A stretch of DNA of 64,000 nucleotides from the NCBI GenBank assembly GCA_002438565.1, contig DJPN01000022.1, positions 2,492 to 66,491 of the forward strand, given 5' to 3'. Source of the stretch: Alphaproteobacteria bacterium UBA6411 (GTDB lineage: Bacteria; Pseudomonadota; Alphaproteobacteria; CAAGCB01; CAG-977). Numbering within the stretch: position 1 is the stretch's first letter; each line of letters starts with the position of its first letter. This document shows positions 2,518 through 51,635 of this stretch, piece after piece. Under the pieces are notes generated by a model. It was not told the origin of the DNA. It saw only the letters and a program-made list of their open reading frames with translations, and did no database searches. The position numbers and the translations under genes are program-made.

Positions 2518-3393
2518 ATGGACGTTTGTAGGGGAAAAAAAGCGAAGGTCGCGGTTCATTTGCATTTGTATTACACGGATATGTGGGCGAAAATAGCCGA
2601 CAGTCTGTCAAATCTGGATGTATGCGATTGGGATTTGTTTGTAACGCTGACGCAATCGGATGCTCTGTTAAGCAAACAGATTTTGGAATATTTTCCGCGT
2701 GCAAAGATTTTTGTCGTTGAAAATCGCGGCTTTGACGTCGGTCCGTTTATCCATTTTCTGCATCAAATCGATTTGTCCGATTACGATTTTGTGTTGAAAC
2801 TGCATACCAAAAACGACAAGAACGGCAGTGACAGCCGAATTAACAAGTATTGGCTGTCCCGCGAAATGTGGACAAACCTGATGTATCAGTCTTTGATTTC
2901 GGACAGGCGGACGGTTTTGCGCAACTTGCATCGGTTTGACAAAGACGCGGATTGCGGGATGATCGCGTCCCGTTATTTGATTACATCGGAATTCGGGGCG
3001 TCAAAAAACGTTTGCCGCGGCGTTTTGTCGGCGATGAAAAATTTGACGGGACGATATCCGCCGAAAATCACTTTTGCGGCGGGAACGATGTTCGCGGTTA
3101 GGGCGAAATTGCTGGAACCGATTAAAAACGCCTATGCCTTGCAGGATTTTGCCGTGTCGGATTCTACTGTCAAAGACGGCACTTTGGCGCATGTGCTGGA
3201 ACGGGTGTTCGGGTGCATGGTCATCGCCCAAGGCTATAAAATCAAAGGTTCAATCCACAATTGGAAATTTGAAGCTGCTCAACCATTGAAACGGTTGAAG
3301 TCTTTTGTTTGGAACGCAAAAACAACGGCGCGCGGATACCGGCTGGTTAAAGTCTGCCGCATCCCCGTTTATCACAGGAGGATTATAAAATGA
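2518..3393 (+). CDS. RgpF-like rhamnan/polysaccharide synthesis glycosyltransferase
   Basis: 291 aa. The motifs VAVHLHLYYTDMW, FVVENRGFDVGPF, LKLHTKN and AGTMFAVR read like Rhamnan_synth_F family motifs. A GGAGA SD-like sequence precedes the ATG, and the stop overlaps the next start (ATGA at 3390-3393). Confidence 0.7.
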   Translation: MDVCRGKKAKVAVHLHLYYTDMWAKIADSLSNLDVCDWDLFVTLTQSDALLSKQILEYFPRAKIFVVENRGFDVGPFIHFLHQIDLSDYDFVLKLHTKNDKNGSDSRINKYWLSREMWTNLMYQSLISDRRTVLRNLHRFDKDADCGMIASRYLITSEFGASKNVCRGVLSAMKNLTGRYPPKITFAAGTMFAVRAKLLEPIKNAYALQDFAVSDSTVKDGTLAHVLERVFGCMVIAQGYKIKGSIHNWKFEAAQPLKRLKSFVWNAKTTARGYRLVKVCRIPVYHRRIIK

Positions 3394-6300
3394 ATCGCGG
3401 ATTTTTAAAAACTTTACGTTTTTTTCATCTGATTAACAAAAAAGCATACAAAAAACGGATGAAAAAGTACGCGCCGGAATACCGCGCGATTGCCAAATCG
3501 CCGCTGTTTGACGCCAAGTGGTATTTGGAACACAATCCCGATGTCGCCGCCGCCAAAGCCGACCCCGTGGAGCATTACTTGACAATCGGCTGGAAAGAGG
3601 ACCGCCCGACATCCCCATACTTTGACGGTCAAGCCTATCTGCGGATGTATTCCGACGTCGCCGGAGAAAATGAAAATCCGTTGTTGCATTACGAATTGTT
3701 CGGGAAAAATGAAGGCAGAAAATTAAAGGAAACGTGCAATGTAGCCTTGCAAAAAAAAATGCCGCGAAAAGATGTGTTTTTCAGTGTTATTGTCGCCAGT
3801 TACAACTATCGGGATTATATCCAAGAAACATTGGATTCATTGGTAAATCAAACGTATACAAATTTTGAAGTGATCGTCGTGGACGACGGTTCGACGGACG
3901 ATTCCGTTGAAGTGATACAGCAATACGTTGATAAATACCCTTTTATTCATTTGTATCGCCACCCGAACGGGGAAAACAAAGGATTGCCGGCAACCGTCAA
4001 ACTGGGCGTTGAAAAATCAAAGGGAGAATATATCGCCTTTTGCGAAAGCGATGATTATTGGACGGCAAATCATTTAGCGGAAGTCAACAAACTTATTACT
4101 TCATCTAAAAATGTTAAAATTGTAGTCAACGATGTTAGTCTTTTTGGGGATGGCAAACGAGCTGAATATGTGGAAAGAAACTTGATGCCATTAAGAAGGC
4201 ATGAACTTATTAAATCTCCTTTGTGTATGACTCGTTATGATTTTAGAATTCGCAATTGGATTGTTACATTTAGTGCAGTTTGCGTAAAGAAAAAACAATT
4301 AAATAATGTTGACATTTTGAATAATCCTAGACCTGCTAATGAAGATTGGTGGTTATGGCGTCAGGTATGTTATGGAAATAAGATTTATTACATTGATAAA
4401 CAATTGACAGCATGGCGCATGCATAATTCCTATATGACAAAAGACTCAGCAAAAACAGATGTATGTGATAAGCAACGCCTGTTTTTAGAAGAATGTGATA
4501 AACTGCTTGATAGAAAAGGGAATTTTATGACATCTTTTTCTGTAATAATGCCTACATATAATCGAAAAAAAATGATAACAAATGCAATTGATTCATTACT
4601 TTGTCAGTCATATAAAATTTTCGAATTGATAATTGTAGATGATGGTTCTACAGATGGTACGGATGATTTTCTAAAGAAAAAATACGAAAAAGAGATTTCT
4701 TCAGGAATAATACGTTATTTTTATCAAAAAAATTCAGGCTGCTGTAAAGCAAGGAACTTTGGATTGAAGATGGCTAAAAACGATTGGATAGCTTATCTTG
4801 ATTCGGACAATGAATTGGCCAATGATTTTTTGAAAACAATGGCTTCAGCTATTGAATGTAATCCTAATGCAAAAACTTTTTATGGGAAGTTTCATGCAAT
4901 AAATAGTGATAAAGACAGAATTGTTGGGCAAGAATTCGATTTCAATTGCCTCATATCCGAAAATTTTATCGATCTTGGAGTATTTGTTCATCATCGCTCT
5001 GTTGGAGAACAGTTAGGAGGATTTGATGAAAATATGACGCGATTGGTTGATTATGACTTAATTACAAGGTATGTGAGAGAGTATAAGCCAATCTTTATTG
5101 ATAAAATTATTATGAAATATAATGACGGTAATGAGAGTGATCGTATATCCAAATCAGGAAATTTGATGGATAATTGGAATTATTACAAAATCAAAAATAC
5201 TAATTTTATTAAGGTGTCGACAATTATAACCTCGTTTAATCATGAAAAATACATAGAACAAGCCATTGAAAGCGCGATAACACAGCAAGGAAATTTTATT
5301 CACGAAATCATAATTTCAGATGACGGCTCATCAGATGAAACACCAAAAATTATTGAGAAATATGCGATAAAATACCCGCATTTAATTCGGAATATATCCG
5401 AAAAAAGAAACGTCGGCATCTCAAAAAATATGAAAAAATGTATAAAGGAAGCAACGGGAAAGTATATTTTCATTTGTGAGGGGGACGATTATTGGTGTGA
5501 TGTATTTAAAATAAAGAAACAAATTGAATTTTCTGAAAAACATGGATATAGTTTTGTATTCAATGATATTAAAATATTTAATGAAGAAAAAAATACAATA
5601 ACATGCGCAATTCAGCATAAAACACTAAATAATGAATTGTGCGGGTGGGATGCTTTGAAAGCACCTGAATTAAGTTTGCCTGTGACATTTTCTTGTTGTA
5701 TGTTCGATTCAAAAATCTTAAAAAATATTCCTGAAATTTTATATGAAGGAAGATTGAGTGAAATAGGACTTTTCTTTTATTTTGAAAAATTCAGTAAAAT
5801 TGGTTATATTCCGCAAGCAATGACTGTTTATAGACAACACAAAGGAAGTGTATGGTCAGGAGCTTCGGAAGAAGATAAAAAACGGCAGAAAATACGAGTT
5901 CGAGAAGTTGCTTTGGCCGTTTGCAGAAAAGAGTATAAAAAAACTTTAGAAAAAATCATTGCTCAATTAAAAGGGACAACACCCAATTCTGCTAATCCCT
6001 TTTTCTCCATTACCAAACAGGGAAACAAGAAAATTTACCGTGTTTTAGGGTTGAAAATTACGCGAAAAAACCGCTTTGCCGCTTTGTCCGCCGAAATTGC
6101 TCAAAACCGTGTTGAAAACGGCGAATTGTTTGCGAAATTGCACCAAGCATTAAGCAAACAGATCGTTGATGCACTGTCACGTCAGGACATCGTGAAAAAG
6201 GAACTGGGCAATCTGAACAACGAAATCAAAAGCTTGGTTGAAAAACAGAATAAATTGCAAGAAGCGCTGTCGAAATCAACGGATTTAACTGTTGCCGCAA

Positions 6301-7466
6301 TCAATGAAACGGGACGCAACAGTGTAGGGAGCATTGCGGCGCAAATAAGCCGAATGTCTGCCATGCTGTCGAGCGAACTGATGTACAGCGCGCGGCAGTC
6401 CGAAGAAGCGACGGCGGCACTGGAAAACCAAATGGCGTCTTATTGCCAGACTTTGCAAAACAGTTTGTTTTCCAATGCAAAGGCGATTGAACGCGCGTCT
6501 GAAAAATTGTTATCCGATTTCCAATTGTTGACGGCGGAAACGAAAACGGCGGGTGAAAAGGCAAACCTTGCCATCAAGGAATGCGGTTTGAACGCTAAAG
6601 ACGGACTGTTGCATCTGACAGAAAAATTAACCCGTCAGACTGCTGAAATCAGCGCGAGTGTCAGCAACGCTTTGAAAGAGCAGACCTCTGGTTTGAAATC
6701 GGAACTGACGGAGTTGTCAAAAGGCTTTTCAGAGAAACAGAATGAAAACGCGCAAGATTTAAAGCAAAAAATACAAAAGGCGCAGACGGAAGCACGACAA
6801 AATTATCAAGAATTGAACTTTGCAGATTTGTTTCACGACACCACTTTGCAAACAGCTTGGCTGAAAGACAAATCTTTCACCTGTTTCCGCGGGGCGGCGA
6901 ACTATAGTTTTCTTTATACGCTGTTCAGAGTTTTGGACAACGCCAATCCTCAAACAATTTTGGAAATGGGAATGGGGCAAACGTCCAAACTGACAACTCA
7001 ATATGCGGCGTTCAAACATCCCGAGGCAAGACTGGATATTGTCGAAAACGACAAAAACTGGATTGACCTTTATTCAGCACAATTGGCAAAGGGGGACAAT
7101 ATCCGCATCCATCATCAAGAACTGGAATTCTTTACGGTAAACGGGATTGCTTGCCGCAAATATGCCGATATGACGCCGATTGTCCAAGACACGAAATATC
7201 AGCTGATTGTCGTTGACGGACCTTTCGGTGCCGACCAGCCGCAACCGAGGACGAACATTATCGGGCTGATTGACAACAATAACCTTGCCGACGATTTCGT
7301 CATCATATTCGACGATGCCGAACGGGCTGGCGAACAGGATACTATTCGCAAAACGAAGCAAAAACTGTCCGAAAAGGGAATTAAATTCGTGGAAGACAAG
7401 CGCACGGGCATTAAAACTCAAATTTTGCTGTTGAGCGAAAGCCGTTCTTTTATCAACTTTTTGTAA
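3390..7466 (+). CDS. Giant multidomain glycosyltransferase: N-terminal repeat motif, three GT2 domains, a long coiled coil, and a C-terminal SAM-methyltransferase-like Rossmann domain
   Basis: 1358 aa, with AGGAGG 7 nt upstream of the ATG. There are three GT-A openers with following DDGS/D-x-D motifs: FSVIVASYNY (~3780), FSVIMPTYNR (~4535) and VSTIITSFNH (~5214). A heptad-like Q/E/K/L-rich segment spans ~6040-6800. The C-terminus has ILEMGMGQTS ... VVDGPFG ... IIFDDAER. The central part (~4080-6000) is visibly much more AT-rich than both ends. Confidence 0.8.
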   Translation: MNRGFLKTLRFFHLINKKAYKKRMKKYAPEYRAIAKSPLFDAKWYLEHNPDVAAAKADPVEHYLTIGWKEDRPTSPYFDGQAYLRMYSDVAGENENPLLHYELFGKNEGRKLKETCNVALQKKMPRKDVFFSVIVASYNYRDYIQETLDSLVNQTYTNFEVIVVDDGSTDDSVEVIQQYVDKYPFIHLYRHPNGENKGLPATVKLGVEKSKGEYIAFCESDDYWTANHLAEVNKLITSSKNVKIVVNDVSLFGDGKRAEYVERNLMPLRRHELIKSPLCMTRYDFRIRNWIVTFSAVCVKKKQLNNVDILNNPRPANEDWWLWRQVCYGNKIYYIDKQLTAWRMHNSYMTKDSAKTDVCDKQRLFLEECDKLLDRKGNFMTSFSVIMPTYNRKKMITNAIDSLLCQSYKIFELIIVDDGSTDGTDDFLKKKYEKEISSGIIRYFYQKNSGCCKARNFGLKMAKNDWIAYLDSDNELANDFLKTMASAIECNPNAKTFYGKFHAINSDKDRIVGQEFDFNCLISENFIDLGVFVHHRSVGEQLGGFDENMTRLVDYDLITRYVREYKPIFIDKIIMKYNDGNESDRISKSGNLMDNWNYYKIKNTNFIKVSTIITSFNHEKYIEQAIESAITQQGNFIHEIIISDDGSSDETPKIIEKYAIKYPHLIRNISEKRNVGISKNMKKCIKEATGKYIFICEGDDYWCDVFKIKKQIEFSEKHGYSFVFNDIKIFNEEKNTITCAIQHKTLNNELCGWDALKAPELSLPVTFSCCMFDSKILKNIPEILYEGRLSEIGLFFYFEKFSKIGYIPQAMTVYRQHKGSVWSGASEEDKKRQKIRVREVALAVCRKEYKKTLEKIIAQLKGTTPNSANPFFSITKQGNKKIYRVLGLKITRKNRFAALSAEIAQNRVENGELFAKLHQALSKQIVDALSRQDIVKKELGNLNNEIKSLVEKQNKLQEALSKSTDLTVAAINETGRNSVGSIAAQISRMSAMLSSELMYSARQSEEATAALENQMASYCQTLQNSLFSNAKAIERASEKLLSDFQLLTAETKTAGEKANLAIKECGLNAKDGLLHLTEKLTRQTAEISASVSNALKEQTSGLKSELTELSKGFSEKQNENAQDLKQKIQKAQTEARQNYQELNFADLFHDTTLQTAWLKDKSFTCFRGAANYSFLYTLFRVLDNANPQTILEMGMGQTSKLTTQYAAFKHPEARLDIVENDKNWIDLYSAQLAKGDNIRIHHQELEFFTVNGIACRKYADMTPIVQDTKYQLIVVDGPFGADQPQPRTNIIGLIDNNNLADDFVIIFDDAERAGEQDTIRKTKQKLSEKGIKFVEDKRTGIKTQILLLSESRSFINFL

Positions 7467-7480
7467 AAAAGGGGGAGCGT

Positions 7481-8056
7481 ATGATCGTCGCTTTTATACA
7501 AGATCAGACGAGCGATGAAGTCGCCAAGCGTCAGCGAACGGCGATTTTGGATTATGCCGAATTGCGCGGTATTCAAATTGATGCTTGGGTTGCCGCAAGC
7601 GATTTTTTGCCCGAAAGTTTAAACACGGGCGATGTTTTGCTGTTGGAAAAAACGTTCCGATTGGCAAAAGACGTCGCTTCCATTGCCAAAACATTGGCCG
7701 CGCTGTTGAAAAGGGGTGTTGCGGTTTATTCCTGCGCCGACGGCGTTTTGTTTGACGGAAACCTTGAATCCGCGGCGGAAATGGCGGATATGCTTGAAAA
7801 GATTGTGATTTTGACGGAGGATTTGCGATCCCGATTGACCAAGGAAAGTTTGGATATGCGCCGTTGCGCGGGGCAAAAGCTGGGGCGTCCTTACGGTGCG
7901 CTGAACAAGCAAATCAAATTGTCGGGACATGAAATCGAAATCGCCGAATTGCTGCAAAGCGGCTGTTCGCGCCGTCAAATCGCCGAAAAACTGCACGTTG
8001 CGCCAAACACTGTGACAAGCTTTATAAAAAGGACACCCGAACTGGCGGATATATAG
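7481..8056 (+). CDS. Serine-recombinase-like protein lacking the catalytic Ser/Arg (pseudo-resolvase with an intact HTH)
   Basis: 191 aa, with GGGGGAG SD, lying 14 nt after the giant GT stop. It is collinear with the 1671..2267 protein. However, MIVAFIQDQTSDE aligns Gln to Arg7 and Gln to Ser9, and RLGR becomes RLAK. The C-terminal KLGRPYG ... RRQIAEKLHVAPNTVTSFIKR is conserved with the paralog. Confidence 0.65.
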   Translation: MIVAFIQDQTSDEVAKRQRTAILDYAELRGIQIDAWVAASDFLPESLNTGDVLLLEKTFRLAKDVASIAKTLAALLKRGVAVYSCADGVLFDGNLESAAEMADMLEKIVILTEDLRSRLTKESLDMRRCAGQKLGRPYGALNKQIKLSGHEIEIAELLQSGCSRRQIAEKLHVAPNTVTSFIKRTPELADI

Positions 8057-27594: not shown

Positions 27595-28521
27595 ATGATT
27601 GCACAAAAACGCCTGCTCACCCGTTGCGATTTCGACGGACTGGTGTGCGCCGCCCTGCTTAAAGAATTGGGTTTAATCGACGAAATCCGCTTTGTTCACC
27701 CCAAAGACATGCAGGACGGCAGAATATCCATTTCCAACGGGGACATCACGGCCAACCTGCCCTATGTCGAAGGCGTGTACATCGCGTTCGACCACCACAT
27801 CAGCGAAAACGCGCGCGTTATCAGCCCGCCCAACTATATCGTTTATCCGAATTCCCCGTCCGCCGCGCGCGTCGTATACGAATATTACGGGGCGGAAAAC
27901 CGCTTCAAAGACATCCCCGCCGAATTGATGAAAGCCGTCGACAACGCCGATTCGGCACGCTATACGGTCGACCAGATTAAAAATCCGACGGACTGGACTT
28001 TGCTGGCGTTCATCACCGACCCCCGCACGGGATTGGGACGGTTTAAAAACTTCCGCATCGGCACTTACGAATTTATGCTCAAACTGGTGGATTTGTGCCG
28101 CACGCATCCGATTAACGAAATCTTGAACGATCCCGATGTCAAAGAACGCGTCGATTTGTACTATGAACATCAAGACAAGTTTATCGACCAGCTGAAGCGC
28201 TGCACGACCGTTTACAAAAACGTCGCGCACATCAACTACCGCGATCAAGACGTCATTTACGCGGGCAACCGCTTTATGGTGTATGCCCTGTTTCCGCAAA
28301 TCAACATTTCCGTTCATGAAATTTGGGGCAAAAACCGGCGGAATGTCGTTTTTGCGGCGGGCAAGTCGATTTTCAACCGCACGTCGAAAATGAATATCGG
28401 GGAATTCATGCTCCAGTTCCACGGCGGCGGCCACATCGCGGCGGGAACGTGTCAAGTCCCCGTCAAAGACGCCGAACAGGTGCGCGAAGCCATTATCACC
28501 GCAATGCGGCAGGACGTCTGA
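27595..28521 (+). CDS. DHH/DHHA1-family phosphoesterase, copy 1
   Basis: 308 aa, with CDFDGLVCAALL (motif I/II), IAFDHHIS (DHH) and FHGGGHIAAGT (DHHA1 GGGH). Confidence 0.72.
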   Translation: MIAQKRLLTRCDFDGLVCAALLKELGLIDEIRFVHPKDMQDGRISISNGDITANLPYVEGVYIAFDHHISENARVISPPNYIVYPNSPSAARVVYEYYGAENRFKDIPAELMKAVDNADSARYTVDQIKNPTDWTLLAFITDPRTGLGRFKNFRIGTYEFMLKLVDLCRTHPINEILNDPDVKERVDLYYEHQDKFIDQLKRCTTVYKNVAHINYRDQDVIYAGNRFMVYALFPQINISVHEIWGKNRRNVVFAAGKSIFNRTSKMNIGEFMLQFHGGGHIAAGTCQVPVKDAEQVREAIITAMRQDV

Positions 28522-28523
28522 CA

Positions 28524-29474
28524 ATGACCGAAAACCGTTTCCGTCTGGTTACCCGCAGTGATTTCGACGGGCTGGTATCGGCGATTTTGCTCAAAGAACT
28601 GGATTTAATCGACGACATCAAATTCGTCCACCCCAAGGACGTGCAGGACGGACTGGTTGACATCCGTCAGGGCGACATCATCACAAATCTGCCTTATTCC
28701 AAAAACGCGTCGTATGTTTTCGACCACCATATCAGCGAATTGGCTCGCGTCGGCCACAAAAGCAACAGCTATTTGAATCCGAATGCACCGTCCGCCGCCC
28801 GTGTCGTATGGGACACTTTCGGCGGAAAAGACCGGTTCAAAAACATATCCGAAGAAATGATGACCGCAGTGGACAAGGCGGATTCCGCGGATTACACCGT
28901 TGACGACATTCTGCATCCGACGGGATGGACTTTGCTCAGCTTTATCATGGATTCGCGCACGGGGCTTGGACGTTTTCACAATTTCCGCATTTCAAACTAT
29001 CAGCTGATGATGAATCTGATTGATTTCTGCCGCTGCCACGACCCGGAAGAAGTCCTTGACATGCCGGATGTCAAAGAACGCGTCGATTTGTATTTTTCCC
29101 AACAGGAAAAATTCAAAGAACAGCTGAAACGCCAAACGACCGTTTATAAAAATCTGGCCTACATCGACATGCTGAACGAAGACGTCATTTACGCGGGCAA
29201 CCGTTTTATGGTGTACGCCCTGTTCCCCGAAGTCAACGTATCCATGCACGCGATGTGGCGCGTCAACGGACAGCGCATCGTGTACGCGGTCGGGAAATCC
29301 ATTTTCAACCGCACAAACATTATCAATATCGGCGAACTGCTGTTGGGATACGGCGGCGGCGGGCACGCGAACGTCGGCACCTGCCAAATCGATTTGGACA
29401 AGGCAGCGCAAGTCAAAGACGAGCTGATTGCCGTTTTGACCGATCCGCAATACACGGAACAGCCGCAAAACTAA
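28524..29474 (+). CDS. DHH/DHHA1-family phosphoesterase, copy 2 (tandem paralog)
   Basis: This is an internal ATG at 28524, 2 nt after the copy 1 stop, giving 316 aa. SDFDGLVSAILL, YVFDHHIS and YGGGGHANVGT are present. It is collinear with copy 1 and roughly half identical by eye. Confidence 0.72.
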   Translation: MTENRFRLVTRSDFDGLVSAILLKELDLIDDIKFVHPKDVQDGLVDIRQGDIITNLPYSKNASYVFDHHISELARVGHKSNSYLNPNAPSAARVVWDTFGGKDRFKNISEEMMTAVDKADSADYTVDDILHPTGWTLLSFIMDSRTGLGRFHNFRISNYQLMMNLIDFCRCHDPEEVLDMPDVKERVDLYFSQQEKFKEQLKRQTTVYKNLAYIDMLNEDVIYAGNRFMVYALFPEVNVSMHAMWRVNGQRIVYAVGKSIFNRTNIINIGELLLGYGGGGHANVGTCQIDLDKAAQVKDELIAVLTDPQYTEQPQN

Positions 29475-41123: not shown

Positions 41124-43220
41124 TCAACCTTTATTTTCGGGAATTGACGGCGGCAAAGACGGCGGAGATTCGGGTTCCGCTGCGGGTTCGGGAGCGGGCG
41201 GCGCCGAATGGGTCATCATGGACGCGGGCATTTTGGGCATGCCGACGCCGACTTTTCCCAATGTCGATTTAAAGCCCTTGATAACGGGAATTTTAATCCG
41301 CTTGACGGGCGCCGCGTCGGGATTGGGCACGCTGTTTTGCTGGCGCGCAGCCTGCATTTGAGCGCGCTTCCACGCGGGCAAATCCTCGTCTTCGTTGCCC
41401 GTTTCGTTCAGTTTGAACGTCGGCGGAGGAGGCGGACGATCATCCACGTTGTCATCCATTTTTGCTTCGACGGTAACGGCTTCCTCGATTTGTTTGTTCT
41501 GCTCTTCGGGCGACAAAACGACGATTTCGACGCCTTTTTTGTCCTTGGGGCGAACGATTTTGACCAAATCGTCTGGACCGACTTTGTCATACATCATCAA
41601 AACCGCCAGCGGGTTTTCGATATGGTGCTGAATCAAGCGTTTGATTTCACGCACGCCGTTTTTGGCGATAAAGACTTCGTCCGCAAACCATTTGCGCGCT
41701 TCCAAAGTCAGTTCCGCGCGAATGTTCACGGCCTTGGCGCGCTTGACGAATTTATTCAAGTGAATGTCCACGATTGCCAGCAGGTTTTCCTCCGCCAATC
41801 CGTGGAACGGAATGATGTCGTCAATACGGGCAAGGAATTCGGGACGCAGGTTTTTGCGCAAAAACTCCATACGCTGATAACGCGGCAGGTTCGCGCCCAA
41901 GTTCGACGTCATAATCACCACCGTGTTGCGGAAATCGACCGTCAAACCTTTGCCGTCCGTCAAACGCCCTTCGTCCAACAGCTGCAGCATCAAGTTCAAA
42001 ATTTCGCTGTGCGCTTTTTCCATTTCGTCGAACAAAACCACTTGATAAGGGCGCAAACGCACGGCTTCGGTCAAAACGCCGCCCTGCTCGAACCCCGGAG
42101 TCCCCGGAGGAGGACCCAGCAGACGCTGAACGGACACTTTTTCCATGTATTCGGACATATCCAAGCGCAGCAAAGCCGTTTCGTCGTCAAACATAAATTC
42201 GGACAGCGCTTTGGCCAATTCGGTTTTACCGACGCCCGTCGTACCGATGAACAGGAACGTTCCCAGCGGACGGTTCGGATCCTGCAATCCCGACTTCATA
42301 CGTCTGACCGCGCCCGAAATGACGGAAATCGCTTCGGGCTGGCCGATAACGCGCCGCCCCAGAAAGTTTTCAAGGTCAATAAGGCGTTTTTTGTCCTCGG
42401 CATCGACCTTGTCCATCGGAATCCCCGTCCATGCGGAAATGATGTTCGCGACGTGCTGTTTGTTCAAAACGGTATCGGTCGTTTTCTTTTCGTCCAAATC
42501 CATCATCAAGCCCGTTGCGGCTTCGTCCAGCAAGTCAATCGCCTTTTCGGGGAACAGACGGGACTTGACGTAACGCCCCGCCATTGAAACGGCGTTCTGC
42601 ACGATTTCGTCATCAATTTGGATTTTGTATTTTTCCGCCAGACGCTTGCCCACCCCGCGCAGAATGTCCGTCGTTTCCGCGGGCGTCGGTTCTTCGACGT
42701 ACATGGTTTGCAGACAGCTCATCAAATCGGGGTCTTGTTCGATATACTGCTTAAAAGCGTTCAGTTCGGCTTCGACAACGCATTTGATTCCGCCGTCAAG
42801 GACTTTCGGCTTCAAAAACTTGGGAATTTCGGGGTTGCCGTTCGGCGTGCGCGCCAGAAAGCCCAAGTCGTTGATGTACAAAATCATCTGATCGCCCGCA
42901 GCCTGGATTTGCTGGAACGCTTCTTTCAAGTGTTCCTCGTATTCCGCCTGTGTTTTGGAATCAATCATCATCGTCGCGATGTCGACGCCGACCAGCTTGC
43001 GCCCCTGCAGTTTCGGCGGCACGCGGTTTTCCGCCAGCGCTTTGGCGAAACCTTCGACAATCGACGTTTTGCCGATGCCCGTCGGCCCCAGCAGCATGGG
43101 GTTGTTTTTCGTGTCGCGCAGCAAAATGTGCATCACGCGGCGCTGTTCCTTTTCGCGTCCGATGACCAGCTTCAGCGTGCCGTTTTTGGCTTTTTCGGTA
43201 TAGTCGACAATATAGCTCAC
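41124..43220 (-). CDS. Atypical Clp/Hsp100 AAA+ ATPase: no N-domain, no M-domain, degenerate NBD1 Walker B, Pro-rich C-terminal tail
   Basis: I place the start at GTG 43220, with GGGGGAGG 7 nt upstream and a GTGA overlap with the dapF stop. The track start at 43247 is TTG. NBD1 has GPTGIGKTS but ILYINDLG instead of hhhhDE. AIDLLDEA is present. NBD2 is intact (GTTGVGKTELA, VVLFDEMEKAH, GPPPGTPGFEQGG). The last ~170 aa are low complexity (DRPPPPPTF ... PPAPEPAAEPESPPSLPPS). Confidence 0.8.
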   Translation of the reverse strand: MSYIVDYTEKAKNGTLKLVIGREKEQRRVMHILLRDTKNNPMLLGPTGIGKTSIVEGFAKALAENRVPPKLQGRKLVGVDIATMMIDSKTQAEYEEHLKEAFQQIQAAGDQMILYINDLGFLARTPNGNPEIPKFLKPKVLDGGIKCVVEAELNAFKQYIEQDPDLMSCLQTMYVEEPTPAETTDILRGVGKRLAEKYKIQIDDEIVQNAVSMAGRYVKSRLFPEKAIDLLDEAATGLMMDLDEKKTTDTVLNKQHVANIISAWTGIPMDKVDAEDKKRLIDLENFLGRRVIGQPEAISVISGAVRRMKSGLQDPNRPLGTFLFIGTTGVGKTELAKALSEFMFDDETALLRLDMSEYMEKVSVQRLLGPPPGTPGFEQGGVLTEAVRLRPYQVVLFDEMEKAHSEILNLMLQLLDEGRLTDGKGLTVDFRNTVVIMTSNLGANLPRYQRMEFLRKNLRPEFLARIDDIIPFHGLAEENLLAIVDIHLNKFVKRAKAVNIRAELTLEARKWFADEVFIAKNGVREIKRLIQHHIENPLAVLMMYDKVGPDDLVKIVRPKDKKGVEIVVLSPEEQNKQIEEAVTVEAKMDDNVDDRPPPPPTFKLNETGNEDEDLPAWKRAQMQAARQQNSVPNPDAAPVKRIKIPVIKGFKSTLGKVGVGMPKMPASMMTHSAPPAPEPAAEPESPPSLPPSIPENKG

Positions 43221-45526: not shown

Positions 45527-45652
45527 TTTACCGTCCTTTATCCTTTAACTTTTCAAGCAGTTCAGTCTAATCGAATTTTTCCCCCTTTGCAAAGGATTAA
45601 GTAACAAAAACGGCACGGCGCGCAAGCAAGGCTTGTTCGGTGTTTTTTTTAT

Positions 45653-45681
45653 TTGAAAGATCACCGTCTGTTTTGTAAACT
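45653..45681 (+). promoter_or_regulatory. Near-consensus sigma70 promoter driving the structured RNA / methyltransferase operon
   Basis: TTGAAA lies at 45653-45658, followed by a 17-nt spacer and TAAACT at 45676-45681. The predicted start is ~45688-45690, right at the first hairpin. A perfect 12-bp palindrome CCTTTGCAAAGG (45584-45595) lies upstream. Confidence 0.5.
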
Positions 45682-45687
45682 GGCTTT

Positions 45688-45961
45688 GTCCGCGCAAAAT
45701 CGGTTTGTGCGGAAAGTGCCTTAGCGGGTGCGGAGCCGTGAGAAAGCTCTAATGTTGTTCGGCGTGGGTATGCGTCGTAATTCGTGTTGTTTAAGTACGA
45801 ACACGAAAAAGTATCCCCGAATCTGTTTATGGTTCGGGGGGCTTTCGGCGTATGTTCAAAAGTCCCGATTTGAATCGGATAACTTTAAAGGTCGAAAGGG
45901 TCTTGTAACAACATTATGACTTTCTCAACTCCCCGAACCGCTTTAGGGCGGTTTTTGGGGA
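45688..45961 (+). ncRNA. Unclassified ~270-nt highly structured RNA (leader or independent ncRNA) preceding the methyltransferase-nuclease pair
   Basis: There is a 9-bp hairpin at 45690-45712. A 7+10-bp closing helix pairs 45740-45759 with 45907-45926 and encloses hairpins at 45781-45807, 45815-45839, 45840-45864 and 45865-45878. A terminal hairpin lies at 45931-45960. The G-T pairs (45694/45708 and 45841/45863) are compatible only with plus-strand transcription. Confidence 0.5.
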
Positions 45962-45967
45962 TTTTTT
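45931..45967 (+). terminator. Intrinsic terminator / RBS-sequestering hairpin abutting the methyltransferase ATG
   Basis: CCCCGAACCGC (45931-45941) pairs with GCGGTTTTTGGGG (45948-45960). A T6 tract at 45962-45967 follows, and the ATG is at 45968. The only purine-rich SD candidate (GGGGA, 45957-45961) is the 3' arm of the stem. Confidence 0.65.
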
Positions 45968-46981
45968 ATGGCTAAAGCAACAGGAAACGCAAAACTGCAC
46001 CAAGCGCAACACAATGGAAACGATGAATATTACACGCAACTGTCCGATATAGAAAACGAACTGAAACACTATAGAAACTTTTTCAACGGAAAAACCGTTT
46101 TCTGCAACTGCGACGACCCGTATGAAAGCAATTTTTTCAAATACTTCGCTTTGAATTTCAATGCACTGGGTTTGAAAAAACTAATCGCGACCTGCTATTC
46201 GGCATCGCCCGTTATGGGGCGGGAACTGCCGTTGTTTGACAGAATGAACGGGAAAAAAGCGTACAAAATCGAAATTACCGAAGTAATTGACACGAATAAC
46301 GACGGCGCGGTCGATTTGTCCGATGTTGAATATTTGATAAAACACGGGAAAAACACTTTAAGCGTTTTGGAGGAAAACGGTGATTTTCGCTCAGCCGAAT
46401 GTGTTTATTTATTGAATCAAGCCGATATTGTCGTAACAAATCCTCCGTTCAGCCTGTTTCGGGAATATGTTGCACAACTGATTGAATTTAAAAAAGAATT
46501 TTTAATTGTCGGCAACAAAACGGCAATTACTTATGCCGAAATTTTCAAATTGATAAAAGAAAATAAAATTTGGTTGGGATATACCCCGAAAATTAAGCGT
46601 TTTCGAGTCCCTGATTATTACGAGGGAAAACTGATTTCAAAAGAAAGTGACGGGAAAAAATACGCAAACAATGTCGGAAATGTTTCGTGGTTCACAAACT
46701 TGGACGTTTCTATCAGAAATGAAAAAATTGTTTTGTATAAAAAATACATTCCGGAGGAATATCCGAAATACGACAATTACGACGCGATTAACGTGGATAA
46801 AGTCGCTGACATTCCAGTCGATTACGACGGCGTGATGGGCGTTCCGATTACTTTTTTGGACAAGTACAACCCGAACCAATTTGAAATCGTCAAATTCAGA
46901 AAAGGAAACAATGAACGGGATCTGTCAATCAACGGAAAATGCCCGTTTTTCCGCATTTTAATCAAAAGGAAAAAATCATGA
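45968..46981 (+). CDS. N6-adenine DNA methyltransferase, EcoRI-methylase-like family
   Basis: 337 aa. It has NDEYYTQ near the N-terminus, DIVVTNPPFSLFREY (NPPF at 46439-46450) and VMGVPITFL. The composition is AT-rich. Confidence 0.82.
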   Translation: MAKATGNAKLHQAQHNGNDEYYTQLSDIENELKHYRNFFNGKTVFCNCDDPYESNFFKYFALNFNALGLKKLIATCYSASPVMGRELPLFDRMNGKKAYKIEITEVIDTNNDGAVDLSDVEYLIKHGKNTLSVLEENGDFRSAECVYLLNQADIVVTNPPFSLFREYVAQLIEFKKEFLIVGNKTAITYAEIFKLIKENKIWLGYTPKIKRFRVPDYYEGKLISKESDGKKYANNVGNVSWFTNLDVSIRNEKIVLYKKYIPEEYPKYDNYDAINVDKVADIPVDYDGVMGVPITFLDKYNPNQFEIVKFRKGNNERDLSINGKCPFFRILIKRKKS

Positions 46982-48054
46982 AAATCGAACTGCATCAAAT
47001 CACCATCCGCGACGTTTTCAACGGTTATCGAAACAATGACGAAAACGGCGTCGTCGGATACGGCGGAAAGCTGAACATCCGCCCGCCGTATCAGCGCGAA
47101 TTCGTCTATGACGACAAAAAGCGAAACGCCGTTATCGAAACGGTTTTCAAGGGTTTTCCGCTGAACGTGATGTACTGGTCGAAAAACGCCGACGACACTT
47201 TTGAACTGCTGGACGGACAGCAAAGAACGCTGAGCCTGTGCGCTTACGCCAACGGGGACTATTCGTTTAACAGCAAATATTTTCACAACCTGACGGAAAC
47301 GGAAAAAAATCAGATTCTGGATTACCCGCTGATGATTTATGTTTGCACGGGCAACGACAAAGAACGGCTGGACTGGTTTAAAACAATCAACATCGCGGGT
47401 GAAAAACTGACCGACCAAGAATTGCGCAACGCCAATTACACGGGAACTTGGCTGACCGATGCCAAGCGACATTTCAGCAAAACGAATTGCGCCGCTTACA
47501 ACTTAGCAAGCAAATATATGAACGGTTCGCCGATTCGGCAGGATTATTTGGAAACGGTGCTGCGCTGGATAAGCGCGGACAATATCGAAGACTATATGGC
47601 GCAACATCAAAACGCCCCGAACGCAATCGAGTTGTGGCTTTATTTTCAAAGCGTCATCGCTTGGGTTCAAGCCGTTTTTCCGAAATACCGCAAGGAAATG
47701 AAAGGGCTCGACTGGGGGCGGCTGTACAATTCGTTTGGGAATCAAAACTTTGGCAACTTTGAAGCGCAAATTGCAAATTTGATGGAAGACGAAGACGTTT
47801 CCAACAAAAAAGGCATTTACGAATATCTGCTGTCGGGCGACGAACGGAAATTAAGCTTGCGCACGTTTTCGGACAAAATGAAACGCGAAGCTTACGAACA
47901 GCAAAAAGGAATCTGCCCCAAATGCGGGCAACATTTTGAATTTGAAGAAATGGAAGGCGACCATATCGTTCCGTGGAGCAAAGGCGGACATACAACGGCT
48001 GGCAATTGTCAAATGCTGTGCCGCCGCGACAACGGAATCAAATCCAACCGTTAA
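46978..48054 (+). CDS. DUF262 (ParB/Srx-fold, DGQQR) - HNH endonuclease fusion
   Basis: The ATG at 46978 overlaps the MTase stop (ATGA), giving 358 aa. It has IRPPYQREFVYD and LLDGQQRT (DGQQR at 47212-47226). The C-terminal CPKCGQHFEFEEMEGDHIVPWSKGGHTTAGNCQMLCRRDNGIKSN is a canonical HNH. Confidence 0.85.
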   Translation: MKIELHQITIRDVFNGYRNNDENGVVGYGGKLNIRPPYQREFVYDDKKRNAVIETVFKGFPLNVMYWSKNADDTFELLDGQQRTLSLCAYANGDYSFNSKYFHNLTETEKNQILDYPLMIYVCTGNDKERLDWFKTINIAGEKLTDQELRNANYTGTWLTDAKRHFSKTNCAAYNLASKYMNGSPIRQDYLETVLRWISADNIEDYMAQHQNAPNAIELWLYFQSVIAWVQAVFPKYRKEMKGLDWGRLYNSFGNQNFGNFEAQIANLMEDEDVSNKKGIYEYLLSGDERKLSLRTFSDKMKREAYEQQKGICPKCGQHFEFEEMEGDHIVPWSKGGHTTAGNCQMLCRRDNGIKSNR

Positions 48055-48085
48055 GACATTAAAGATGAGATATTGAATATAAAAA

Positions 48086-48110
48086 CGGCTCCGTAAAAAA
48101 AACGGAGCCG
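48086..48110. terminator. Hairpin between convergent genes (a better terminator on the minus strand)
   Basis: A CGGCTCCGT / ACGGAGCCG 9-bp stem with an A7 loop. On the minus strand it is followed by TTTTTA. Confidence 0.6.
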
Positions 48111-48132
48111 CTTGAATTTGCTAAACCGCTTA

Positions 48133-48585
48133 TTAGCGCGAACGCATGCGGTTCGCAATCGCCGCCTGAACGGCTTTGTTGGGTTCCGCTTTCTTTTCGG
48201 CGGAAACGTCGCGATGGGTCATGCCGCCGCTCGGATTGCCGAAAGCCGCATACAATTCGCCCGCTTCTTTCCAGAACGATTTTTTGGGTTCATCCTTTTT
48301 CGGTTCGGCTTTGGCGGGTTCGGCCGTTTTTGCCGTTTCCTGTGCGGGAACGTCGCGGTGCGTCATACCGCCGCCCGGATTACCAAAAGCCGCGTACAAT
48401 TCGCCGGCTTCTTTCCACAGGGATTTTTTGGGTTCGGCTTTTTCCTTTTTGGGTTCGGCCTTGGCTTCGGGAGCTTTTTCAGCTTTGTCCGCCGGCATAT
48501 CGCTGTGCGTCATGCCGCCGCTCGGATTGCCGAAACGGGCGTACAAATCGGCGACTTTGCCCCAGAACGATTTTTTTTCTTCCAT
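48133..48585 (-). CDS. Hypothetical protein built of three ~48-aa tandem repeats
   Basis: 150 aa, with 3 copies of KKSFW(K/G)(E/K)(A/V)(G/A)(E/D)LYA(A/R)FGNP(S/G)GGMTH(R/S)D(V/M) separated by AEPKK-rich linkers. I recognised no family. Confidence 0.65.
   Translation of the reverse strand: MEEKKSFWGKVADLYARFGNPSGGMTHSDMPADKAEKAPEAKAEPKKEKAEPKKSLWKEAGELYAAFGNPGGGMTHRDVPAQETAKTAEPAKAEPKKDEPKKSFWKEAGELYAAFGNPSGGMTHRDVSAEKKAEPNKAVQAAIANRMRSR
48200..48580 (-). repeat. Three in-frame tandem DNA repeats of ~148-150 bp (coding)
   Basis: Compare CATGCCGCCGCTCGGATTGCCGAAAGCCGC (48.21 kb), CATACCGCCGCCCGGATTACCAAAAGCCGC (48.36 kb) and CATGCCGCCGCTCGGATTGCCGAAACGGGC (48.51 kb). Confidence 0.8.
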
Positions 48586-48682
48586 AACGCTTCTCCTACC
48601 AGAAAATCTGTTGAATTTTCTTTATCCTTGCACGTTTTTTCCTTTTTGTCAATTTTTTCTTCTAAAAAAGACAAAAAAGTTT

Positions 48683-49045
48683 TTACGCTTTAACAGCGAC
48701 CTCGTAAGCGCGTTCAATCATATCCATAACGTCGTCTTCGGACGTTTCTGCGTTTTCCGATTTGGCATAAGCGGTCAAAGCTTTGTCCAACATGTCAATG
48801 CTTTTCAAAACATTGGTTTCAATGACCAGAATTTTGGAAACGCCCGCCAAGTCTTTCATCACGTCTTCGTCGATTTGCGTCAGCAGAATGTCGCCCTTCG
48901 GAGAACGTTGGAAATGCAGGGTTGTCGCGTCTTTTTTCGTCAAAACGGGTTTTTCCGGCTCGCCTTCAAACGCGGGCAAAAACACGGAAATCATCCCCGC
49001 TTCGTTTTTTACAAACTGAGGGGACGGCAATTCGTTAATATCCAT
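48683..49045 (-). CDS. Hypothetical 120-aa acidic protein
   Basis: The ATG at 49045 has GAAGGAG 8 nt upstream; the track start at 49051 is TTG. I recognised no family. Confidence 0.5.
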   Translation of the reverse strand: MDINELPSPQFVKNEAGMISVFLPAFEGEPEKPVLTKKDATTLHFQRSPKGDILLTQIDEDVMKDLAGVSKILVIETNVLKSIDMLDKALTAYAKSENAETSEDDVMDMIERAYEVAVKA

Positions 49046-49083
49046 TTTCAAACTCCTTCGGTTGAATTTTTAACCAAGTATAC

Positions 49084-49114
49084 AAAAAAGCCCTTGTCGA
49101 AACAAGGGCTTTTC
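49084..49114 (-). terminator. Rho-independent terminator of secF
   Basis: AGCCCTTGT-CGAA-ACAAGGGCT; on the minus strand it is followed by T6. Confidence 0.75.
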
Positions 49115-49127
49115 GTCATCCGAATGT

Positions 49128-50063
49128 TTAACCCGCGTGTTCAAACGGGTTGACGTTTTCGTTGTGGCTTTCCATCGTTTTGCGGATGTCCAGATACATC
49201 AGCACGGGCATCGCGACGTAAATCGACGAATACGTGCCGACGATAATGCCCCACAGCATAATCAAGGCAAAGCCCTGCAGCACCGAACCGCCCATGAACA
49301 GCATCACAACCAGCATGATAATGGTCGACATGCCCGTCAGCAAAGTGCGCGGCAACATTTCGTTGGTTGTTTTGTTAATCATTTCGTCAATCGGCATTTT
49401 GCGGTATTTGCGCAGATTTTCGCGCATGCGGTCATAGGAAACAATGGTGTCGTTGACGGAAAATCCCGCCAGCGTCATCAGTCCCGCGATAATCGTCATG
49501 TCGAAATCCAGCCGGAACACGGAAAACAGACCGACGGCAATGATGATGTCGTGAATCAGCGACAGCATTGTTCCCAGCGCGAATTCCCATTCAAAGCGCG
49601 TCCAAACATAGGCGGTAATCATCAGTCCCGCCAGAATGACCGCCCAAATGCAGTTGCGGATAAGCTCCGCGCCCACACGGGGGCCGACCATTTCAACGCG
49701 GCGGATGGTATATTCGTCGCCCAGTTTTTCACGAATGACGGACGAGATTTTCATCTGTTCCTTTTCATTGTCGCCGCGTCCCAAAGCGGTAATCAAAGCT
49801 TCCGTTCCCTGTTCGCCGACAGGCTGCAAATCGACGCCGAGATCGTCCAGTTTCGCGCGCAGATCTTTCATGTCGATTTTCTGTTCGGCTTGGACTTCCA
49901 TCAATACGCCGCCCTTAAAGTCGATGCCCAAATTCATGCCTTGGGTGCAAATCGACACAATCGACACAATCATCATCAACAGCGAAAACACAAATGCGAT
50001 TTTGCGCGCGCCGATAAAGTTAATGTGCGTCGGTTTAATGAAATAATGAATCAGTCTAGGCAT
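49128..50063 (-). CDS. secF: Protein translocase subunit SecF
   Basis: 311 aa, with NFIGARKIAF, GIDFKGG and six TM segments. Confidence 0.93.
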   Translation of the reverse strand: MPRLIHYFIKPTHINFIGARKIAFVFSLLMMIVSIVSICTQGMNLGIDFKGGVLMEVQAEQKIDMKDLRAKLDDLGVDLQPVGEQGTEALITALGRGDNEKEQMKISSVIREKLGDEYTIRRVEMVGPRVGAELIRNCIWAVILAGLMITAYVWTRFEWEFALGTMLSLIHDIIIAVGLFSVFRLDFDMTIIAGLMTLAGFSVNDTIVSYDRMRENLRKYRKMPIDEMINKTTNEMLPRTLLTGMSTIIMLVVMLFMGGSVLQGFALIMLWGIIVGTYSSIYVAMPVLMYLDIRKTMESHNENVNPFEHAG

Positions 50064-50075
50064 TTCACATTCTCC

Positions 50076-51635
50076 TTACACATTGATTCTTTGCGGCTTT
50101 GTGAGCTTCACCCACGCCAAAATCAGCACTTTTGTCACATAAACGGCCGTAAACACGGACGTCACCAAACCCAAACAGGTGGTAACACCGAACCCGCGGA
50201 CAGGGCCGTTGCCCAGCCAAATCAAAATCAACCCCGCAAACAAGCTGGTCAAGTTTGAATCGAAAATCGCGGACGAAGCGTTTTCAAATCCCGCTTCAAT
50301 CGTGTTCAAAACGGATTTGCCGTAGCCCTGTTCTTCACGCATGCGTTCGTAAATCAAAACGTTTGCGTCGACCGCCATGCCCAACGTCAGAGCAATACCC
50401 GCAATTCCGGGCAAAGTCAGCGTCGCGCCCAGCGCGCTCATCGCGCCGCACAGCAGCAGCAGGTTCAGCACCAAAGCGATATCGGCGAACAAGCCGAACA
50501 GCCCGTAAGTCGCGACCACGAACAACAGCACCAGCACCATGCCGACCACGCAGGATTTTTTGCCCGCGTCAATCGAATCGGTTCCCAGTCCGGGACCGAC
50601 GATGCGTTCTTCAACGACTTCCAGCGGCGCGGGCAAAGCGCCCGAACGCAGCATCAGCGCCAAATCGTTCGCGCTTTGAACCGTAAAGCTGCCCGTGATA
50701 ATGCCCGAACCGCCCGTAATCGCGGATTTGACTTCGGGCGCGGTAATCACTTTGCCGTCCAAAACAATCGCCAAACGGCGGCCGACATTGTCGCGCGTCG
50801 CCGTTCCGAAACGTTTTGCGCCGAACGAATTGAAACGGAAAGCGACAACGGCTTCCGCCCCTTGGAAATCGGCGCGGGCATCGGTCAGATGTTCGCCGCC
50901 GACAATGGATTTGCGTTCAATGACATAAAACGCGGCGGAAGCGTCCTCGTCCCCCGGAACGACTTTGGAATCGGGGGCGATTTTGCCGCGGCGGGCGTCT
51001 TCGACACTGGTCTTTTCATCAACGAAATGGAACGACATCTTCGCCGTTTTGCCCAGCAGTTTTTTGACTTCGTTCGGGTCTTCCACACCGGGCAGCTGAA
51101 CTTGGATACGGTCGGAGCCTTGACGCATAATCGACGGTTCGCGCGTTCCCAGCTGATCAATACGGCGGCGGACGATTTCAATCGACTGGTCAACCGCGGA
51201 CGCTTTCATTTTCAGCAAAGCCTGTTCGGTAAAGCGAACGGACAGCATGTCGCCGTTTTCCGCAACGTCCAGATTGCCCTTGTCGATTTTGCGAATCAGC
51301 TCTTTGGCTTTGGCGATTTGTTCGTCATTGACGATTTTGACCGTCAAAGCGTCGTCTTTGACAGACAGATTCGTATAGCGCACGTTCTTTTCGCGCAAAG
51401 CGATGCGGGCGGCGTCCATGACCGCGCTCAGCTGATCCTTGACCACTTGATCCAAGTCGACCTGCAGCAACAGCTGAGAACCGCCCTGCAAGTCCAAACC
51501 CAACGTCATCGGCTGCCACCATTCGGGCAGTTTGTCCTGCTGCGCCTTGGGAATAAAGTTGGGGACGGCGAAAAACACGCCGACCGCCGTGATTATTCCG
51601 ATTAAGGCGACTTTCCATTTCGGATAGTTAAACAT
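50076..51635 (-). CDS. secD: Protein translocase subunit SecD
   Basis: 519 aa, with LGLDLQGG, a large periplasmic domain, and the C-terminal TM bundle with LTLPGIAGI. Confidence 0.93.
   Translation of the reverse strand: MFNYPKWKVALIGIITAVGVFFAVPNFIPKAQQDKLPEWWQPMTLGLDLQGGSQLLLQVDLDQVVKDQLSAVMDAARIALREKNVRYTNLSVKDDALTVKIVNDEQIAKAKELIRKIDKGNLDVAENGDMLSVRFTEQALLKMKASAVDQSIEIVRRRIDQLGTREPSIMRQGSDRIQVQLPGVEDPNEVKKLLGKTAKMSFHFVDEKTSVEDARRGKIAPDSKVVPGDEDASAAFYVIERKSIVGGEHLTDARADFQGAEAVVAFRFNSFGAKRFGTATRDNVGRRLAIVLDGKVITAPEVKSAITGGSGIITGSFTVQSANDLALMLRSGALPAPLEVVEERIVGPGLGTDSIDAGKKSCVVGMVLVLLFVVATYGLFGLFADIALVLNLLLLCGAMSALGATLTLPGIAGIALTLGMAVDANVLIYERMREEQGYGKSVLNTIEAGFENASSAIFDSNLTSLFAGLILIWLGNGPVRGFGVTTCLGLVTSVFTAVYVTKVLILAWVKLTKPQRINV

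Follow-up and report, generated by a model that had tools for sequence, protein, structure and literature searches.

A large, strongly covarying leader RNA family outside Rfam, located before defence and surface-structure genes of an uncultured gut lineage, is the new element described here. We found it upstream of a restriction-modification (RM) gene pair that is itself one more member of a very large known family. The pair lies in a 64,000-nucleotide (nt) stretch of the genome of Alphaproteobacteria bacterium UBA6411 (contig DJPN01000022.1), the whole of which we refer to as the window. Taken together, the observations are best explained if the pair is transcribed through this RNA as a clade-specific conditional attenuation leader, with the Shine-Dalgarno (SD) sequence masked in the RM copies, and we regard this reading, drawn from sequence, as probable. 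The list of open reading frames (ORFs), together with promoter and terminator scans, places a promoter, a non-coding stretch, two ORFs and a closing hairpin in a plus-strand block at 45527–48112, with the following features.

45653–45681 (+): sigma-70-type promoter TTGAAA-17-TAAACT (promoter scan, 9 of 12 matches)
45682–45967 (+): structured leader RNA, about 285 nt (fold z-score, covariance model, covariation)
45813–45841 (+): P5 hairpin AUCCCCGA...UCGGGGGG (helix 6 of the alignment, 95% paired)
45930–45967 (+): terminator hairpin at 45930–45961 with U-tract at 45962–45967 (fold −19.5 kcal/mol, z = −3.5)
45968–46981 (+): EcoRI-family N6-adenine DNA methyltransferase (MTase), 337 amino acids (aa) (Pfam PF13651, PADLOC MTase_II)
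46978–48054 (+): DUF262/ParB-like (DGQQR) plus HNH nuclease, 358 aa (Pfam GmrSD_N and HNH, PADLOC REase_II)
48083–48113 (both strands): bidirectional terminator hairpin (9–12 pairs, 7 of them G-C, on each strand)

The leader is a conserved, covarying RNA

An initial annotation, made from the letters of the window alone, described 45688–45967 as densely structured, and this is borne out by folding: the minimum free energy is −110.3 kcal/mol (z = −5.92), and none of 200 shuffled sequences folds as well. The leader comprises hairpins P1 and P2, a multi-stem junction closed by a long-range helix, and a terminator at its end. The sequence upstream of the MTase gene recurs in contigs that encode the closest homologues of the nuclease, in three contexts: one that shares the synteny of the window (L003), one in which it follows mnmG (L001) and two short contigs (L002 and L005). 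Among these the hairpins have changed in sequence while the pairing is kept. In an alignment of 12 sequences 56 pairs are predicted, of which 18 show compensatory changes, the long-range junction-closing helix included. A covariance model built from this alignment (R1) matches the window copy over its full length at 256.8 bits (E 7e-73).

Further copies number 16 around RM loci and, in a metagenome scan that used two invariant motifs and then model R1, 59 model hits in 58 loci. The alignment of these 59 copies has 95% of its cells paired, as against 35–55% when the partners are slid by 1–3 columns; 34 of the 56 pairs have changed on both sides, and none of 500 shuffles reaches the observed values. 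The initial annotation had allowed that Rfam might hold a known leader, and none was matched: searches of Rfam 15 at E up to 10, with 2.9 kb and then with 351 nt, returned terminator-like noise only. The best matches, AgvB (21 bits, gathering threshold 56) and SAM-III (15 bits, threshold 45), both fall on the terminator hairpin, and the leader has no Rfam match to HEARO/omega-RNA, to the SAM and c-di-GMP riboswitches or to EAR. A literature search on leaders of RM systems gave no account of this RNA, and a scan of viral contigs for the RNA motif gave 0 matches. We conclude that the leader represents a genuine family of conserved, structured RNAs without an entry in Rfam.

Several other interpretations of the non-coding stretch were set aside. 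A repeat resembling repetitive extragenic palindromes (REP) or miniature inverted-repeat transposable elements (MITE) was rejected, there being one copy in 64 kb, and so was a 63-aa ORF (45728–45919) as a controller protein, since it is contained in helices showing RNA-level covariation. An apparent tandem array of three RNA copies in 1.2 kb of one metagenome contig (L140) was dropped as a probable assembly artefact; positions 1–1235 of this contig consist of near-identical RNA copies and MTase fragments joined via short shared words, and are probably chimeric.

The leader precedes genes of several kinds

The leader is present in multiple copies within an uncultured gut and rumen alphaproteobacterial clade, with one copy in the window. 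All genome loci that bear it are gut or rumen metagenome-assembled genomes (MAGs) labelled Alphaproteobacteria or Rhodospirillales (L006–L013 and L058). UBA2903 (L008 and L013) and HGM16793 (L058 and L011) each contain two RM paralogues, each with its own RNA, and two contigs (L001 and L007) have a second RNA copy after the RM pair, upstream of a signal-peptide ORF.

The genes that follow the leader are diverse. A co-oriented ORF starts 0–35 nt after the RNA in about 60 of the 66 copies with enough downstream DNA. According to the census and a Pfam scan of representatives, the products include EcoRI-family MTases 40–100% identical to that of the window, other defence-type proteins (a 1603-aa Type ISP RM enzyme and an N6_N4_Mtase DNA methylase), and surface proteins, namely an Acyl_transf_3 membrane protein, autotransporters, a PilS/bundlin-type (type IVb) pilin, and PEGA and TRL lipoproteins, together with many signal-peptide ORFs that have no Pfam family. 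From these associations we take the leader to be a general cis-regulatory cassette of the clade genomes and not specific to RM genes.

This bears on the proposal in the initial annotation that the module depends on a dedicated RNA, in a three-part architecture. Within the clade, RNA, MTase and nuclease are found as a set in three or more genomic contexts and in two diverged groups of paralogues; the P1 sequence, fully different between those groups, still pairs. The RNA accompanies the pair within the clade, but a covariance-model search found no copy upstream of the pair in any of 72 loci outside it, and the same RNA precedes the unrelated pilin, autotransporter, acyltransferase and lipoprotein genes. 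It also lacks tandem repeats of the ToxI kind, a repeat search of 45682–45967 having found no direct-repeat family, and has no HEARO, omega-RNA or other Rfam match. That the RNA is a dedicated part of this RM or defence system, acting for instance as a guide, as a specific regulator or in the manner of an antitoxin RNA, is accordingly very improbable, and neither the dedicated RNA nor the three-part architecture is retained.

Two side observations concern copy number. A CALDOX01 MAG has two RM paralogues as well, and many metagenome contigs (L148–L151, L001 and L007) end inside or just after the MTase gene, the nuclease gene or the RNA, which fits paralogous copies within one genome breaking assemblies.

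Promoter, terminator and a possible switch

The promoter hexamers TTGAAA-17-TAAACT are present at 45653–45681, and the same hexamers are found in two related contigs (L003 and L008); their description as near-consensus was generous at 9 of 12 matches. Of 53 other RNA copies, 33 have a promoter-like hexamer pair immediately upstream, matching at 8 or more of 12 positions and usually of the form TTGnnn-17/18-TATyCT. A scan detected no plus-strand promoter-like site between 45681 and the MTase ATG. The likely SD, GGGGA at 45957–45961, is within the 3' arm of the terminator, and the ATG directly follows the U-tract at 45968. Because the ATG abuts the U-tract and no internal promoter-like site is present, expression of MTase and nuclease would need read-through of the terminator.

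The form of the terminator differs with the gene that follows. In RM and acyltransferase copies an extended stem pairs GGGGA or GGAGA, 7 nt before the ATG, with UCCCC or UCUCC, and there is a compensatory change between RNA subgroups (CUCCCC/GGGGA versus CUCUCC/GGAGA). Before secreted-protein genes the terminator is of the simple intrinsic kind, and the roughly 25 nt behind it include a separate SD. Between the sequestered SD and the ATG of the MTase lies a run of T that comprises six residues in the window, seven in L003, eight in L001 and five in group B, so that SD-to-ATG spacing and terminator U-tract both change with its length. The 3' arm of P5, UCGGGGAG, can alternatively pair with CUCCCCGA at 45930–45937, the start of the terminator (CUCYCCGA); this pairing is possible for 7 of 8 positions in at least 54 of the 59 copies and is nearly invariant.

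From the anatomy, conservation, covariation and gene associations of the leader we infer both a switching mechanism and the existence of a signal to which it responds. The sigma-70 promoter would drive the leader and, by read-through, both genes. By default the terminator would form, and in the restriction-gene copies the SD GGGGA would also be buried. If a signal acted on the junction domain, UCGGGGAG could pair with CUCCCCGA instead, and this pairing would disrupt the terminator and free the ribosome-binding site. Such a switch would be a new means of timing the establishment and expression of restriction systems; to our knowledge, the known modes of RM control are C-proteins, antisense RNAs and MTase autorepression. 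It would also open a way to study how defence and surface variation are coordinated in these bacteria. More tentatively, and with less confidence than in attenuation itself, we suggest that the leader may be a new signal-responsive RNA switch, either a riboswitch or a target of antitermination by a protein or RNA factor, that jointly controls several RM systems and surface antigens (pilin, autotransporters, O-acyltransferase and lipoproteins). A common switch of this kind would be an RNA-based counterpart of phase-variable 'contingency' regulons.

Several points weigh against the attenuation reading and the RM system attached to it. Read-through, the transcription start and termination are predictions from the sequence. 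The alternative pairing is almost invariant, so that it is compatible with a switch and beyond confirmation by covariation, and about 285 nt is large for a simple attenuator. As to the gene pair, the Type II label of the nuclease comes from a PADLOC profile name and gene context, and the nuclease keeps a nucleoside triphosphate (NTP)-binding DGQQR motif that is atypical for classical Type II enzymes. An alternative explanation is that the RNA is an independent, multi-copy gene for a trans-acting small RNA whose position before the RM pair is incidental. This would account for its having its own promoter and terminator, for the several copies per genome or sample (as in UBA2903 and HGM16793) and for the few copies that lack a convincing downstream ORF, such as L090, L132 and L115. 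It does not account for the co-oriented ORFs that begin so close behind most copies, leaving no space for another promoter, nor for the RM and acyltransferase copies in which the SD is built into the terminator arm and covaries with its partner, and we consider it unlikely.

The attenuation leader that we favour can be set beside known RNA-controlled systems. Like riboswitch and attenuator leaders, it is a structured RNA close to a promoter, contains a multi-stem junction and unpaired stretches of high conservation, has a terminator right before the ORF, may form a mutually exclusive pairing, and is present in copies before different genes; unlike them, it has no Rfam match or known ligand, and the set of downstream genes (restriction/methylase and surface proteins) does not point to a metabolite. 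The HK022 put RNA, the Bacillus EAR RNA, RfaH/ops and the LoaP leaders are processive-antitermination leaders for surface or foreign genes. They too are elements shared by AT-rich, horizontally acquired or surface-structure genes and located before terminators, but there is no similarity of sequence or structure (the EAR family is in Rfam and was unmatched), and the terminator here is part of the conserved element. The Type III toxin-antitoxin system ToxIN has the same order of promoter, non-coding RNA, terminator and potentially toxic gene. The locus here differs: its RNA has no array of tandem repeats, the genes behind the copies of the leader vary and for the most part do not encode toxins, and the gene next to the RNA is that of the MTase rather than the nuclease.

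The gene pair is a widespread restriction-modification system

The protein motifs noted in the initial annotation (NPPF, DGQQR and HNH) are visible in the translations, and the corresponding Pfam families are matched. The MTase, which carries the NPPF catalytic motif within VVTNPPFSLF, matches EcoRI_methylase (PF13651) at 8e-135 and 450 bits, with residues 10–316 aligned to profile positions 2–306 of 345, and PADLOC MTase_II (PDLC03297) at 7.3e-125 over residues 2–336. Residues 33–154 of the nuclease match GmrSD_N (DUF262, PF03235) at 4e-20, its C-terminus is a canonical HNH domain (PF01844 at 2.9e-13, with PF14279 also matched), and the full protein matches PADLOC REase_II (PDLC03418) at 3.2e-139 over residues 1–358. 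We note that the PADLOC profile names are the annotation of the library's authors and not a tested function. The view of the locus as an RM-like module is in agreement with these Pfam and full-length Type II matches.

Other resources were less informative. NCBIfam has a model for neither protein and gave only a weak match to the Cas9d HNH domain, and RefSeq labels the nuclease simply as 'DUF262 domain-containing protein'. In the PDB, sequence searches matched the nuclease to fragments of HNH domains only and gave no match for the MTase. With an AlphaFold model of the nuclease (mean predicted local distance difference test score, pLDDT, 76), Foldseek gave weak ParB/Noc, BrxU and HNH matches, none at E ≤ 0.001, and no full-length structural relative.

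The nuclease has more than 8000 homologues below 1e-10, many of them from candidate-phyla bacteria and archaea at 66–70% identity, and its DGQQR NTP-binding motif is invariant. A scan of one genome per species gave 572 relatives, from which 80 loci were retained; without exception, those with enough upstream sequence have an EcoRI-family MTase gene ahead of the nuclease gene on the same strand. The pair ranges over Bacteroidota, Patescibacteria, Firmicutes, Campylobacterota and archaea, and is also found on plasmids of cultured Mammaliicoccus, Macrococcoides, Aeromonas and Sulfitobacter. In the window the two genes overlap by ATGA, and the same 4-nt overlap couples them in 10 of 12 clade loci. 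The nuclease homologues are 358–360 aa long with 100% query cover, and we therefore place the start at 46978 and not at that of the longer ORF from 46939. Literature searches on DUF262 with HNH and Type II, and on PF13651, found no description of this pair, and the initial annotation knew of no described system with its three-part architecture; the claim does not hold for the pair, which is widespread and filed by PADLOC as Type II. By its profile matches and distribution, the pair is an ordinary, catalogued and very widespread two-gene RM family rather than a new architecture. The EcoRI-family MTase, an N6-methyladenine (m6A) enzyme, would protect host DNA, and the translationally coupled ParB-like/HNH nuclease would cut DNA that is unprotected.

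It might be argued instead that the DUF262-HNH protein is a modification-dependent Type IV enzyme like GmrSD or BrxU and that the MTase is functionally unrelated to it. The nuclease shares with those enzymes an N-terminal DUF262/ParB-like domain with DGQQR and a C-terminal His-Me finger nuclease domain, and the GmrSD_N match and weak fold matches to BrxU speak for such a relationship. The C-terminus here is a canonical PF01844 HNH, whereas that of GmrSD and BrxU is DUF1524, to which the nuclease has no Pfam match at E up to 0.01, and the protein has about 360 aa compared with about 580. Furthermore, the nuclease is always paired with an m6A MTase, across phyla and with the genes usually overlapping; an m6A-dependent nuclease would attack its own host, and the nuclease here is presumably blocked by modification and not dependent on it. 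There is very little likelihood, in our view, that it is a Type IV enzyme. Nor is there a closer tie to phosphorothioation systems: no dnd or ssp genes were found near the pair, whose neighbours are dapL, dapF, clpB, secDF and small ORFs, and the nuclease, with its DGQQR motif, matches GmrSD_N instead of the DndB family. The links of the nuclease to GmrSD/BrxU and to Dnd are at the level of domains only.

Variable methyltransferases adjoin conserved nucleases

The MTase has two hypervariable segments, at about aa 200–250 and 305–337, which we regard as putative target-recognition segments. In pairwise comparisons of 70 complete pairs, mean identity falls from 67% in the nuclease to 59% in the MTase core and 29% in the MTase variable segments. 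Next to nucleases that are 85–95% identical, the variable segments of the MTases reach a median identity of 31%. When the window is compared with two of its clade relatives (L006 or L008), the nuclease is 80–100% identical in every 20-residue block while the MTase variable segments fall to 0–25%. The variable segments have thus been swapped independently of the nuclease between otherwise close relatives, in a mosaic pattern, and this suggests that the nuclease may have no matched sequence specificity of its own.

These features divide the pair's resemblances. With the Type II systems of PADLOC it shares full-length profile matches, separate same-strand MTase and nuclease genes, and translational coupling; it differs in that the nuclease carries a ParB-like NTP-binding domain and is more conserved than its MTase, the reverse of the usual Type II pattern, and in that expression in this clade passes through a structured leader. 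A conserved restriction subunit with a variable modification subunit is typical of Type I and Type III systems, in which the restriction subunit borrows its specificity, and not of Type II. The decoupled variability and the invariant DGQQR make MTase-guided cleavage a serious possibility, in which the nuclease relies on the MTase for its targets in a manner like that of Type III, with an NTP-using ParB-like/HNH 'Res' and an EcoRI-family 'Mod'. The identity contrasts and the ATGA coupling in clade loci are consistent with this arrangement, which is also compatible with the leader model. Against it, the variable segments are putative target-recognition domains, the MTases might all share a core target, and PADLOC files the nuclease as Type II; on balance we think MTase-guided cleavage rather unlikely. 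If it were true, a family of more than 8000 proteins now filed as Type II or DUF262 would need reclassifying.

The RM locus and its surroundings

The initial annotation saw the islet as a plus-strand block amid minus-strand genes, and all of the elements that it listed were recovered in place, including the closing hairpin (48083–48113), which is common to the nuclease gene and a convergent minus-strand gene for a repeat protein. Long ORFs flanking the islet between 32 and 55 kb are on the minus strand, and the plus-strand ORFs checked among them overlap longer minus-strand ORFs. The islet had also been called AT-rich, and its GC content of 0.433 is indeed below that of the left flank (0.557), the right flank (0.520) and the whole window (0.517). 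Other regions are more AT-rich, however, among them positions 2.5–8 kb; of 308 segments of equal size, the islet has the 19th lowest GC.

Every contig with an identical copy of the neighbouring 95-aa protein holds the pair, or at least the MTase, at this site, and no empty site beside the 95-aa gene was found among these contigs. In L003 and L008 the dapL product is 97.5% identical to that of the window and the left junction is common; the MTases are 70–73% and the nucleases 82–90% identical. The islet is therefore syntenic with relatives at its left junction, the comparison being among contigs with the identical 95-aa neighbour. From these comparisons the locus looks like an old, variable hot spot and not a recent insertion.

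On the other side, L008 (5077–9041), although from a closely related genome, loses its synteny with positions 48133–51635 of the window exactly where the RM pair ends on the right. The right flank of L008 has nucleosidase-like, dCMP-deaminase-like and gltX-like ORFs and a Cys-rich secreted protein, and that of the window has the repeat protein and secF/secD. The repeat protein (48133–48585, minus strand) has 150 aa in three tandem repeats of about 48 aa (period 144–147 nt, DNA identity 61–82%) and no convincing Pfam family; its gene is convergent with the nuclease gene, and the arrangement is identical in conspecific contigs (L144–L147).

A second and more AT-rich plus-strand islet (2518–8056, GC 0.32–0.46) carries genes for an RgpF-like protein, for a protein of 1358 aa with several glycosyltransferase-2 domains and for a small resolvase/helix-turn-helix protein, and looks like a foreign surface-polysaccharide cassette. 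A covariance-model search of the 64-kb window found no copy of the leader RNA before it.

Two further repeats were seen in the window. Diverged Clp/AAA+ ATPase segments at 365–614 and 42499–42748, 42 kb apart and with 71–76% DNA identity, indicate that another ClpB-like paralogue is located where the window begins. At 27610–29348, direct repeats of 110 and 300 nt, 70–76% identical and with each pair spaced 932 nt apart, suggest two tandem paralogous genes.

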